Positions 36,229 to 40,304 of a stretch of DNA of 64,000 nucleotides are shown here, piece by piece. Every line of letters starts with the position of its first letter. Within the stretch, counting starts at the first letter, position 1. The notes below the pieces were generated by a model. It made no database searches, was not told the origin of the DNA, and worked only from the letters and a program-made list of their open reading frames with translations. This DNA is from Candidatus Mcinerneyibacterium aminivorans (GTDB lineage Bacteria; Macinerneyibacteriota; Macinerneyibacteria; Macinerneyibacteriales; Macinerneyibacteriaceae). The translations under genes were made by a program, and so were the position numbers. Location: the NCBI GenBank assembly GCA_008086245.1, contig VSIX01000003.1, positions 1-64,000 on the forward strand, given 5' to 3'.

Positions 36229-37850
36229 TACCTGTGGCTAATATAAGGTCAGATGAAATTAAAGATATATTACAAAAACAGCTTGAGGGCTATGAAAAAG
36301 AAACAGATATTTCGCAAGTAGGAACTGTTATAGAAGTTGGAGATGGAATTGCTAACGCATACGGTTTGAAAGATGCTATGGCATCAGAGCTCGTTGAGTT
36401 CGATTCAGGATTAAATGGTTTAATTTTGAATTTGAATGAAAACAGTGTTGGAATAGTTGTTTTTGGTGAAACCAGAATGATCAAAGAAGGGGATAAAGTA
36501 AAAACTACCGGTAAAATTTTACAAACAAAGGTAGGACCCGAACTTCTTGGTAGAGTTGTTAATCCTCTTGCCGAACCGCTTGACGGTAAAGGTGAGATAA
36601 ACGCATCAGAAACTGCTAATATTGAAAAAATTGCTCCGGGAATTGTTTATAGAAAACCTGTTGAAGTTCCATTACAATCAGGGGTAAAAGCAATTGATTC
36701 AATGATTCCTATTGGTAGAGGGCAGCGTGAGTTAATTATAGGGGATAGAAAGACAGGTAAAACGGCTCTTGCTGTGGATACAATAATTAACCAAAAAGAC
36801 AATGATGTGAAGTGTATATATGTTGCTATTGGTCAAAAGAGATCAACTGTAGCAAGTCTGGTGGAAACATTTGAACAATACGGGGCGATGGAGTACACAA
36901 CAGTTGTAGCTGCTACTGCAAGTGATCCTACTCCATTACAGTATATTGCTCCTTATGCCGGTTGTGCAATAGGAGAATACTACAGAGATAATGGAGAAGA
37001 TGCTTTAATCGTTTATGATGATTTATCCAAGCATGCTGTTGCTTACAGAGAAATGTCTCTGGTATTGAGACGTCCCCCAGGTCGTGAAGCTTATCCTGGA
37101 GATATATTTTATCTTCATTCAAGACTTCTTGAAAGAGCTGCTAAACTGAATGATGATGAAGGTGGAGGAAGTTTAACTGCATTACCGATTGTTGAAACAA
37201 AAGCTGGAGATGTTTCAGCTTATATTCCAACAAATGTTATCTCTATTACGGATGGACAAATTTATTTAAAATCGGATCTTTTTTATTCCGGGGTTAGACC
37301 TGCAGTTGATGTAGGTATTTCTGTATCAAGAGTTGGTGGAAATGCACAAATTAAGGCCATGAAACAGATAGCCGGGGATTTAAGATTGGACCTGGCTCAG
37401 TATAGAGAAATGGAATCATTTGCCCAGTTTGGAGCCGAGCTTGATGAAGCTACAAAGGCACAGCTGACCAGAGGAGAAAAGCTGGTTGAATTATTAAAGC
37501 AGGGCGAACATGTGCCAATGTCTGTATATGAACAAATACTTCAGTTATTCATAGGGGTAAATGGATACCTCGATGATATTAAAACCGAAGATGTTGAAGA
37601 ATTTGTATCTGAAACTGTGGAATTTATTAAATCCAAAGGTGAAGATGCTTTGGAAAAACTTAAGGAAAAAAAGAAATTTGATGAAGAACTTGAAAAAAAG
37701 TTAAAAGATTTAATTGAAGAATTTAAAGAGGCTTATTCTGCGAAATTTGAGAAAGAAAAAGAGGAAGAAGATAATGAGGAAAAAACTGCTGATGAAATAA
37801 ATACTGAGGAAGAAAAAAAAGAAACCAAAAAAGATGAAGAAGAAAAATAA
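36225..37850 (+). CDS. atpA: F1 ATP synthase subunit alpha with acidic/lysine-rich C-terminal extension
   Basis: Walker [10 protein letters not shown]; 541 aa versus about 505 typical. The extra C-terminal ~40 aa are E/K-rich ([62 protein letters not shown]). Confidence 0.85.
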
Positions 37851-37876
37851 GTGATATAAATTAAGAGGTTGATAAA

Positions 37877-38728
37877 ATGGGTAGTTTAAAAGATATAAGA
37901 AAAAGAATATCTAGTGTAAAGGAAACAAAAAAAATTACTAGGGCTATGAATATGGTTGCTTCTGCAAAGCTGAGAAGAACAGAAGATAAACTACTTTCCT
38001 TAAGACCTTATGCAGATGAGCTGATTGAACTTATAGAGACTATCAACTACCACATTCAATCCGAAAATCCGTTTTATGCTGAGCGGGAGAAGGGTTATCC
38101 CCTTTATGTTTTTATATCAGCTGATAAGGGGTTATGTGGAGCTTTTAATAGTAAAATAACTAAAAAAGCTCAGGAACTTTTAAATGAAAGTTCAGAGTGT
38201 GAATCTGTAATAATCGGCAAAAAGGCAAAAAGATATTTTGACAGGAATGATATGGATTATATTAACTCATATATAGATTTTTTTGAAGAACTCTCATACA
38301 ACGATGCTAAAAAAGTTGCAAATTTTTTGTCGGAATATTATTTAAAAAATGAAAAAATTAAGGAAATAATATTTGTATATAATAGATTTAAAAATACAAT
38401 CGTATCAAATACTACAGTGGAGAAATTTCTACCGAGAAAAAGGGAAGAAAGTGGCGAGGAAGAAAAAAAAGTTTATGAATCAGAACCGGATCTAAAATCT
38501 ATGCTTACATATGCTATAACGGAGTATTTAGAATCAGAAGTATACAGAATAATGTTAGAATCGTTAACAAGTGAGCACGGAGCAAGAATGGCGGCTATGG
38601 ATGCAGCCACTGATAATGCTCAGGATATGATTGATAATCTAACAATGGAAGCAAATAGAAAAAGACAGGCTGAAATTACAAAAGAAATTTCAGAAATTGT
38701 TGGCGGATCAAACGCATTGGAGGGATAA
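37877..38728 (+). CDS. atpG: F1 ATP synthase subunit gamma
   Basis: 283 aa; [35 protein letters not shown]-terminus and C-terminal helix typical of gamma. Confidence 0.85.
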
Positions 38729-38729
38729 A

Positions 38730-40304
38730 ATGAAAAAAGGAAGTGTTTTTAGAGTAAGAGGACCTGTTGTGGATGTTGTATTCCCTCAGGAAGAATTACC
38801 TGCAATAAATAATGCTTTAAAAATAGAAAGAGAGGATGAGGAGCTGGTTTTAGAAGTAGCTCAGCATCTTGGAGATAATATACTAAGAACTATTTCAATG
38901 GGGTCTACAGACGGTTTGAAAAGAGGACAGGAAGTTATTGATATGGGTAACCCGATATCTACACCTGTTGGAAAAGAAGTTTTAGGTAGAATATTAAATG
39001 TTACCGGAGACCCAATTGATGAACAGGGTGAAGTAAAAACTGATGAAAAATGGCCAATTCATAGACCAACCCCAACACTTGAAGAACAGGATATTTCTGA
39101 AGAATTATTCGAAACTGGTATTAAAGTAGTTGATCTATTAGCACCTTATAAAAAAGGTGGAAAAGTTGGATTATTTGGTGGTGCAGGTGTAGGAAAAACA
39201 GTTTTGATAATGGAACTAATTAGAAATATTGCCACCGAGCACGGTGGGTTTTCAGTTTTTTCAGGAGTTGGTGAACGGACCAGAGAAGGAAACGATCTAT
39301 GGCTGGAAACAAAAGAATCTGGTGTTTTAGATAAAGCTGCTCTGGTGTATGGACAGATGAATGAACCACCGGGTGCGAGAATGAGAGTTGGTTTAACCGG
39401 ATTAACAATTGCTGAATATTTTAGGGATGTTGAACAAAAAGATGTCCTGCTTTTTATAGATAACATATTTAGATTTACCCAGGCCGGTTCCGAAGTTTCT
39501 GCACTGCTTGGAAGGATGCCTTCAGCAGTTGGATATCAGCCGACTTTAGCTTCTGAAATGGCTGCACTGCAGGAAAGGATAACTTCAACTGAAAAAGGAT
39601 CAATAACCTCAATTCAGGCAATTTATGTACCAGCAGATGATTATACCGATCCCGCTCCTGCAACTACATTTGCTCATCTTGATTCAACTACAGAACTTTC
39701 GAGAGATATTGTGGAAATGGGTATATATCCTGCTGTTGATCCATTATCTTCAACTTCTACAATTTTGAAACCCTCAGTTGTTGGTGAAACACATTATGAA
39801 ACAGCAAGAGAAGTTCAGAGAATACTGCAGAAATACAGAGATCTACAGGATATAATCGCTATTCTTGGTATGGAAGAGTTATCTGAAGAAGACAAAACAA
39901 CTGTTCAAAGAGCAAGAAAAATACAGAGATTCTTTTCTCAGCCGTTTTTTGTCGCTGAGCAGTTTACAGGCAAAAAAGGTAAATATGTAGCGATTGAAGA
40001 TACAATTAAAGGGTTTAAGGAGATCGTAGAAGGTAAGCATGATGATTTACCGGAACAGGCTTTTTATATGGTTGGAACTATAGAAGAAGCAAGAGAAAAG
40101 GGAGAAGAATTAAAATCACGGGGAAAATCGACTGCCGAAGTAGAGAAGAATATTGAAAAGAAGGAAGAGTCAGAAGAAAATAAAGAGTCAGAAAAAAAAG
40201 TATCAAAAAAGAAAAAAGATAAAAAATCTTCTGAAAAGAATAAAAAATCAGGAAAAAAAGAAAAGAAATCCTCAAAGAAGAAAAAAGATAAAAAAAAGAA
40301 ATAG
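38730..40304 (+). CDS. atpD: F1 ATP synthase subunit beta with about 65-aa lysine-rich C-terminal tail
   Basis: Walker [17 protein letters not shown]-equivalent region; ATG 38730 after a GGAGGG RBS; tail ...[37 protein letters not shown]. Confidence 0.85.

Follow-up and report, generated by a model that had tools for sequence, protein, structure and literature searches.

Charged C-terminal tails on both the alpha and the beta subunit of the F-type ATP synthase of Candidatus Mcinerneyibacterium aminivorans

We analysed a stretch of 64,000 nucleotides (nt) from Candidatus Mcinerneyibacterium aminivorans (contig VSIX01000003.1, positions 1 to 64,000, referred to below as the window), which carries a complete F-type atp operon, and found that the F1 alpha and beta subunits encoded by this operon (AtpA and AtpD) both have genuine C-terminal extensions: an acidic tail on alpha and, on beta, a longer lysine-rich tail with a polybasic end. 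These tails are an unusual decoration of a conserved enzyme and not a new system; lineage-specific C-terminal extensions of F1 are already known. That they are real and constrained in composition we consider very probable. The organism belongs to a candidate phylum, and its description comes from an oil reservoir of high temperature and high salinity; its alpha subunit in the database (P0121) is 100% identical to the AtpA of the window.

Both extensions are genuine and abnormal for F1

Both proteins have an N-terminal beta-barrel, a nucleotide-binding domain with P-loop (GDRKTGKT in alpha, GGAGVGKT in beta) and a C-terminal helical domain (PF02874, PF00006, and PF00306 in alpha or PF22919 in beta; E-values from 1e-17 to 8e-86), and they match solved F1 chains with E = 1e-227 and 7e-224, respectively. 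AtpA has 541 amino acids (aa) when read from the GTG codon at 36225, the database copy being 538 aa long with a start three codons later (36234). Its Pfam C-terminal domain stops at residue 500, solved F1 alpha chains end at query residue 498-503 in alignments to Protein Data Bank (PDB) entries, and the alpha subunits of tail-less relatives end about 3 residues past the motif ...EAYSAKF; the true extension is 33-36 aa. The first-pass annotation of this DNA, made from the sequence alone, had described a protein of 541 aa with an E/K-rich end, as found here, but had put the tail at about 45 residues, which was too long because part of the E/K-rich stretch is the normal last helix of alpha.

For AtpD, the listed open reading frame (ORF) starts at a TTG codon (38697); the real start is the ATG at 38730, as indicated by a ribosome-binding site (RBS; GGAGGG, 38719-38724) and by homologues that begin with MNKG or MKKG. 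The protein of 524 aa consists of 465 canonical residues, which is the length of beta in tail-less relatives, followed by a tail of 59 aa, and solved F1 beta chains end at query residue 460-466 (PDB alignments). The K/S/E-rich extension previously noticed on beta is confirmed, its length being corrected from about 65 residues to 59 aa when counted with the ATG at 38730.

As a background we used 80 bacterial loci of diverse phyla, returned by a genome scan that had full-length beta as its query and in effect matched universal beta motifs. The number of residues past a common end point has a median of -2 for these 80 beta sequences, the end being nearly invariant in bacteria (-5 to +2 residues in 79 of the 80 sampled genomes, and +26 in one), and a median of +1 with a range from -4 to +12 for 70 alpha sequences. 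With +36 (alpha) and +59 (beta), the subunits of the window are far beyond both distributions, which confirms the earlier view that the extensions exist and depart from the usual form of F1 alpha and beta. The +26 outlier belongs to a metagenome-assembled genome (MAG) of Actinomycetota (L033, match at 2256-3719 and downstream) and is Pro/Glu-rich (...EREAPPEKSEPEQATEPDPKPEPVAA).

When the last 30 residues of the 63 non-overlapping ORFs of the window were scanned for a content of at least 80% K/E/D/R/S/N, only AtpA and AtpD passed, and the same scan of the loci of six relatives (8-21 ORFs each) again retained only alpha and beta. As far as the DNA covered here can show, namely the window and the relatives' loci, such tails are not a general trait of the proteome. 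Next after AtpA and AtpD in the window comes an ORF of 146 aa (11892-12332), 73% of whose last 30 residues are K/E/D/R/S/N (...KKVKTLEKKVEDEEKESKK), and the only other window segment nearing the composition of the tails is the N-terminus of a methylmalonyl-CoA mutase-like protein (44126-45793), where residues 3-32 are 67% K+E.

The reading frame of the tails is stop-free in all ten tails considered and the other frames mostly contain stops; in shuffled sequence, a frame as open as that of the window would arise with a probability of 0.005 (beta tail) or 0.10 (alpha tail). In-frame tails on both genes are present in at least six independent assemblies from four sources (NCBI, ENA, JGI and Logan), and each tail stops just upstream of the start of the next gene, with intact operon junctions. 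As the RBS and start of atpC follow directly after the stop of beta, the beta tail is not intergenic DNA, and as tails are kept in loci of 48-49% GC, they are not a product of AT bias alone. The first-pass annotation had named tail-less relatives, together with frameshifted stop codons in a homopolymer-rich 3' end, as signs of an artefact; some close relatives do lack the tails, but the stops are not frameshifted, since independent relatives of 48-49% GC keep both tails in frame before the RBS of atpC. A homopolymer indel in sequencing or assembly that masks the true stop, which the A8-A9 runs within the beta tail and the origin of the sequence from a MAG might have suggested, has a negligible probability given the independent assemblies, the position of the tail ends just before the next gene with the other frames closed, the dominant repeat periods that are multiples of 3 and the excess of synonymous over nonsynonymous change described below.

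Composition and predicted structure of the tails

The alpha tail of the window contains 18 D/E and 8 K/R residues, for a net charge of -10. Among eight alpha tails, the net charge lies between -1 and -10 in seven, the exception being one probably chimeric entry; the extensions of relatives are 33-42 aa long and most alpha tails have an acidic start and a short K-rich end motif (KEKE, KEKD).

Charged residues account for 69% of the beta tail of the window and hydrophobic ones for 7%, and its net charge is +15. It opens with a mixed E/K/S stretch of about 23 residues, after which come 36 residues of nearly pure lysine with S, D and E. The DNA of this polybasic end is made of degenerate in-frame repeats with periods of 15, 18, 21 and 42 nt (Tandem Repeats Finder). 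Homopolymer runs of A8-A9 lie inside the coding DNA of the beta tail (40177-40301), and slippage there could give truncated beta tails, as a +1 frameshift would meet a stop within the tail. In the ten beta tails compared, charged residues make up 56-79% and hydrophobic ones 0-19% (0-7% within Mcinerneyibacterium), and the net charge per tail lies between +4 and +27. This charge is concentrated toward the C-terminus: the first halves stay close to neutrality (-2 to +9), against +5 to +22 for the second halves, and the final 15 residues bear +4 to +9. Every one of the ten has a positive second half that exceeds its first half in charge. Lengths range from 36 to 102 aa within the clade and from 36 to 123 aa among all relatives examined.

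AlphaFold2 (AF2) models were built from alignments of 32 sequences and reach a mean predicted local distance difference test score (pLDDT) of 64 for both subunits. The alpha tail is modelled as a single long helix that prolongs the last canonical helix (pLDDT about 51-54), and the beta tail as a helix that continues to about residue 501, then as coil (pLDDT 30-46); no confident fold is predicted for either tail, in models whose overall quality is mediocre. Given their low complexity, the near absence of hydrophobic residues and the low-confidence prediction, disorder is the most likely state of the tails, and isolated helices are the most structure to be expected.

Distribution of the tails among relatives

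All close relatives share the order M23 peptidase, bactofilin, atp operon and methyltransferase, and in a neighbour-joining tree of beta cores the clade splits into four groups. Group A, formed by the window and the sister Mcinerneyibacterium sp. (L083; 29-32% GC), and group C1, formed by L081, L082 and L090 together with L086 (48-49% GC), have both an alpha and a beta tail. Group B, with five taxa including L084 (40% GC), has an alpha subunit of 504 aa and a beta subunit of 465 aa without tails, and group C2 (L089) likewise has neither; over these two tail-less subclades the lengths are 504-507 aa for alpha and 465-467 aa for beta. The proposal that the tails are lineage-specific is borne out by this comparison, and they recur, two subclades having both tails and two having neither. 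The 113-nt gap before atpG in L089 was considered as an early end of alpha and rejected: the gap is a run of N and the protein ends canonically (...VIHKDE).

Whichever state is ancestral, the alpha and beta tails changed state together at least twice, a pattern that is only suggestive, its probability by chance over the four groups being about 1/6 by our own estimate. Lysine-rich beta tails with the same layout, 86-123 aa long overall and 110-121 aa long in L087 and L088, are also found in a second lineage (L087, L088 and P0015), which comprises a MAG labelled Cloacimonetes (GCA_018334695.1) and a Logan contig (L087, 1358-3157; L088, 1-1723) and whose beta core is no closer to that of the window than the cores of many other phyla in the beta-core tree. 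Beta tails rich in K have thus arisen on two or more occasions and can occur without an alpha tail.

The frequency of such tails across bacteria was covered by two lists of the best 120 homologues and by the sample of 80 genomes. A search with the last 126 aa of beta returned short C-terminal fragments of beta only, the tail contributing nothing. Two alpha matches of 609 and 612 aa (P0126 and P0137) were discarded as long-tailed candidates because they contain internal duplicated segments and are assembly chimeras, and three further entries of chimeric appearance (P0123, P0128 and P0140) were excluded from the evidence. The tail-less L084 has other peculiarities: an a subunit of 361 aa in which about 130 residues are inserted between early transmembrane helices (2571-3656) and a b subunit of 200 aa with an N-terminal extension (4490-5092), the a and b subunits of the window and of the other relatives having 231-232 aa and 162-165 aa.

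Length changes and selection

The sequences of the tails cannot be aligned between groups A and C1; their composition and the polarity of their charge are kept. In L083, the beta tail (2827-3057) is encoded by a tandem repeat of 36 nt (12 aa, KKNEKKKQKEKN-like) present in 6.6 copies, and the near-identical strains P0001, P0003 and P0004 differ only in copy number, their beta subunits having 529, 553 and 565 aa. Between L081 and L090, a single A-to-T change shifts the stop codon by three codons. These cases show that the tails lengthen and shorten through in-frame expansion of tandem repeats and through point mutations that move the stop.

Selection was tested on one close pair of strains, L081 and L090, for which the proportion of synonymous differences (pS) in the cores is 0.13-0.17. 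The proportions of nonsynonymous differences (pN) and pS are 0.0026 and 0.134 for the alpha core, 0 and 0.165 for the beta core, 0.062 and 0.278 for the alpha tail and 0.102 and 0.400 for the beta tail, so that pN/pS is about 0.25 in the tails and 0-0.02 in the cores, and change at replacement sites is at least about 24 times higher in the tails than in the cores. When both tails are pooled, nonsynonymous change is below the synonymous change of the tails (Fisher test, p = 1e-4) and below that of the cores (p = 0.024). The tails appear to be under some purifying selection.

Possible roles of the tails

In F1, the C-terminal domains of alpha and beta are located at the bottom, on the side of the membrane, beside gamma and epsilon and above the c-ring, and the top is the crown of delta and the N-terminal domains. 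The tails had at first been placed at the top, toward the delta/b stalk, which this established structure shows to be wrong. A position at the bottom is consistent with the docking of the mycobacterial alpha C-terminal extension onto gamma (PMC8698299).

We tentatively favour a composite reading in which the tails would act as a sequence-independent electrostatic appendage, with lipid-binding ends on beta and counter-charges on alpha; we regard it as plausible, if somewhat short of probable. The alpha and beta C-termini would emerge at the membrane-proximal rim of F1, from where three flexible polycationic beta tails of about 60 residues each could extend to the anionic lipid surface around Fo; the central stalk, the acidic DELSEED loops and the three acidic tails of alpha would lie within their range as well. 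By our own estimates, a polyelectrolyte of 59 residues would measure about 200 Å along its contour and about 60 Å from end to end, and since the gap set by the height of the stalk is some 45-50 Å, the beta tail should be able to reach the membrane. The polylysine ends would bind an anionic surface, most probably the head groups of membrane phospholipids, through electrostatics that do not depend on sequence, which would either give the stator head additional flexible links to the membrane or keep F1 at the membrane. The acidic alpha tails would serve as built-in counter-charges that compete for the polylysine or mask it, and because of this competition the effect would be expected to depend on salt, which may be relevant to an organism from a high-salinity reservoir. 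Mutual pairing of alpha and beta charges, or a tether to an anionic polymer, would be an alternative form of the same non-specific electrostatic action.

A more specific version, a salt-sensitive module in which the polylysine of beta would clamp the rim of F1 to the anionic membrane or to polyphosphate and the alpha tails would compete, seems unlikely to us in that exact form. If it were true, ionic strength or membrane charge would tune the stability of the stator, the retention at the membrane or the ATPase activity of what may be an F/V-hybrid Na+ F1Fo, and the longer beta tails of the second lineage would be a convergent solution. Salt-in halophily was considered as a cause of the tails and rejected, the proteome of the window not being acidic (K+R 14.0%, D+E 13.8%).

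Several observations weigh against an electrostatic function. The putative tethering of F1 to the membrane, derived from charge and geometry, is a doubtful step even within this reading, and it is hard to see what further tethers would bring to an F1 that Fo and the b-dimer already keep in place. Neither tail is present in two subclades whose operon is the same and whose enzyme presumably works normally, the joint presence of alpha and beta tails corresponds to about two independent events that chance could produce, and in the second lineage the beta tail occurs without an alpha tail (L087, where the end of alpha is on the contig and is almost canonical). The tail sequence is unalignable between subclades and the length of beta differs even among near-identical strains. 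The values of pN/pS come from one pair of genomes and tens of sites, the Nei-Gojobori method overestimates pS on the two-fold-degenerate codons of K and E under transition bias, and single tails compared with core pS do not differ significantly (p = 0.18 and 0.09). Finally, the AF2 models are poor overall, and the low scores of the tails therefore count for little as a sign of disorder.

Many of these observations would also be expected if the tails had no function and had grown near-neutrally, through slippage in A-rich 3' ends and drift of the stop codon, tolerated at free, solvent-exposed C-termini. We consider such an origin possible, though not the likelier course of events, and treat it as a serious rival to the electrostatic reading. 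It would account for the repeat of L083 and the differing copy numbers of near-identical strains, for the stop moved by one substitution between L081 and L090, for tail sequences that are not conserved between subclades, for the lack of both tails in two subclades with otherwise identical operons and for an A content of 44-72% in the tails; tail pN is, moreover, only about half of core pS, with no significance for single tails. Near-neutral growth explains less well that the tails are restricted to 2 of the 63 proteins of the window, and likewise to alpha and beta among the 8-21 ORFs of each of the six relatives' loci, that they are kept at 48-49% GC, that the polarity of charge is steady, with a basic end on beta and an acidic tail on alpha, and that pN, pooled over both tails, is lower than pS (p = 1e-4 and 0.024). 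It is also at odds with the joint shift of the alpha and beta states on two occasions and with the renewed evolution of the beta-tail layout in the second lineage.

An autoinhibitory latch, in which one or both tails would dock on gamma and epsilon or in the alpha3beta3 cavity and block the hydrolysis of ATP in the manner of the mycobacterial alpha extension, of the epsilon C-terminal domain or of the inhibitors zeta and IF1, appears improbable to us. In established F1 geometry the tails emerge beside the central stalk, and the polybasic beta tail would lie near the acidic DELSEED loop (MEELSEED in the beta of the window), which the basic C-terminal domain of epsilon uses for inhibition in other bacteria. 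The alpha tail (33-41 aa) matches the mycobacterial alpha514-548 in position and length (PMC8698299), and both are acidic. In the mycobacterial alpha (548-549 aa), segment 533-545 docks into gamma and blocks hydrolysis, and its deletion stimulates the ATPase (PMC8698299). Similarity of the window tail to this gamma-docking segment was not found in phmmer comparisons with 7jg5_A and 7jg5_C, which gave scattered D/E matches only, the alignment ending at residue 539, midway in the segment. Nor was a lineage-specific insertion that could serve as a receptor loop found in gamma, which follows the family profile PF00231 from end to end, an indirect test. A latch would lead one to expect a conserved motif and a fixed length, which contrasts with the unconserved sequence and the 36-102 aa of the beta tails of the clade, and epsilon retains its complete C-terminal domain.

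Still less likely is the binding of a soluble polyanion, either nucleic acid or polyphosphate in the manner of histone H1, or a clustering or condensation of ATP synthases by the polylysine of beta; the K/S/E-rich composition, the net charge of +15 per beta, or +45 per F1, and the apparent disorder of the tails would suit this explanation, but the operon and its neighbours are devoid of nucleic-acid or polyphosphate genes, and for a membrane-bound enzyme the nearest polyanion is the membrane.

Genomic context

The coordinates of the operon, of its genes and of the tails are collected in Table 1. The gene order is atpZ/atpI-like, a, double-hairpin c, single-hairpin c, b, delta, alpha, gamma, beta and epsilon, and the order a-c-b-delta-alpha-gamma-beta-epsilon is common to the window and the loci of six relatives. 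The genes from atpZ/atpI-like to atpH encode proteins of ordinary length which, according to the tail scan, have no charged tails, and the epsilon subunit has a complete, basic C-terminal helical domain (Pfam).

Table 1. Features of the atp operon and of the subunit tails in the window
Feature	Position	Strand	Basis
F-type atp operon, complete	32973-40724	+	ORF list, Pfam
atpZ/atpI-like genes, atpB, double-hairpin c, single-hairpin c, atpF, atpH	32973..36228	+	ORF list, Pfam
atpA, F1 alpha, 541 aa	36225..37850	+	Pfam ATP-synt_ab_N, ATP-synt_ab, ATP-synt_ab_C, E to 8e-86
Alpha C-terminal tail, 33 aa, acidic polyampholyte	37749..37847	+	Translation, charge count, background of 70 alpha
atpG, gamma, 283 aa	37877..38728	+	Pfam PF00231, residues 3-281 on profile 1-285/285
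atpD, F1 beta, 524 aa	38730..40304	+	Pfam, start context, homologues
Beta C-terminal tail, 59 aa	40125..40301	+	Translation, charge statistics, background of 80 beta
Polybasic end of the beta tail, 36 aa	40194..40301	+	Translation, Tandem Repeats Finder, raw sequence
atpC, epsilon, 133 aa	40323..40724	+	Pfam PF02823, PF00401

Two c subunits are encoded in the operon. The double-hairpin c (160 aa, 34387-34869) has as its top PDB match the c1 subunit of Acetobacterium woodii (4bem_J, E = 2e-29), and carries in hairpin 2 a Gly at the site of the ion-binding Glu (VSGSTSIY) and an Ile at the Gln/Glu position of the first helix. The single-hairpin c (93 aa, 34893-35174) has a two-carboxylate Na+ motif, GIGEG ... 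ESTGIY (ES(T)xxY), which resembles those of F. nucleatum and I. tartaricus. This pair, of 157-161 aa and 92-94 aa, is kept in all relatives and points to an F/V-hybrid Na+ rotor of the A. woodii type, in which case the tailed enzyme would be a Na+-type F1Fo.

In the window, the atp operon is immediately preceded by genes for an M23 peptidase and a bactofilin (31794-32971), as it also is in L081, L084, L086, L089 and L090 (about 700-2320).

Significance and comparison with known systems

Few proteins are as strongly conserved as F1 alpha and beta. The mycobacterial alpha extension, a regulatory latch and a drug target, is the one well-studied bacterial exception, and the beta extensions of eukaryotes are structural braces. 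The tails of the window are physically different from both, being probably disordered, constrained in their charge pattern alone and present on both catalytic subunits, with the beta tail found in at least two lineages. If they are functional, fuzzy electrostatic appendages would join folded inhibitors as a means of tuning rotary ATPases, and the tails would offer a simple element that could be transplanted to model enzymes; if they are not, they would be a clean example of low-complexity growth tolerated on a highly constrained enzyme.

Like the window tail, the mycobacterial alpha514-548 (M. smegmatis 7jg5, M. tuberculosis 8j0s) continues for about 35 residues past the canonical helix, is acidic and lies at the stalk- and membrane-facing end of F1. 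The mycobacterial extension has a conserved docking segment (alpha533-545), which locks gamma and makes the ATPase latent, whereas the tail of the window is of low complexity, E/K-rich and variable between relatives, and the solved mycobacterial beta chains have no tail (6foc_D, 475 aa), unlike the window, where both subunits have one. Judged by its sequence, the alpha tail of the window is best described as a positional analogue of the mycobacterial extension and not as a demonstrable homologue.

Long lineage-specific C-terminal extensions of beta, as in the window, are found in the chlorophycean alga Polytomella (6rd4, beta chain of 574 aa) and in amoebozoans, where they have 118 residues in Acanthamoeba and 58 in Dictyostelium (PMC13632647). 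A comparison of Polytomella 6rd4_X past its canonical end with the beta tail of the window gave a sparse, compositional alignment only, without real similarity. In Acanthamoeba, the extension folds as a pair of helices around the adjacent alpha subunit, in contact with the peripheral stalk (PMC13632647). Such packing of helices is not matched by the beta tail of the window, which is 7% hydrophobic, has a pLDDT of 30-46 and shows no amphipathic face, as far as a model of the monomer, which leaves folding upon binding possible, can indicate. Unlike these mitochondrial extensions, the beta tail of the window belongs to a bacterial enzyme whose alpha subunit has a tail as well.

Disordered polybasic tails, rich in lysine, attach to anionic membranes or to polyanions in other proteins; examples are K-Ras4B, MARCKS-type regions and histone H1-like tails. 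A literature search on the organism and on lysine-rich or atpD C-terminal extensions returned no description of lysine-rich bacterial beta tails, and to our knowledge no such polybasic tail is known on a subunit of an F-type ATP synthase. The beta tail shares with these tails the terminal lysine cluster (about +15 in the last 36 residues), the flexible spacer and, as seen in the window and its relatives, a composition that is conserved when the sequence is not. It differs in lacking a lipid anchor or accompanying hydrophobic residues, anionic binding being putative here.

The closest counterpart of the rotor is found in the Na+ F1Fo of Acetobacterium woodii (4bem), whose F/V-hybrid c-ring contains c subunits of the same type as those encoded in the operon of the window. 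The alpha and beta tails are an addition to this architecture and not part of its definition.

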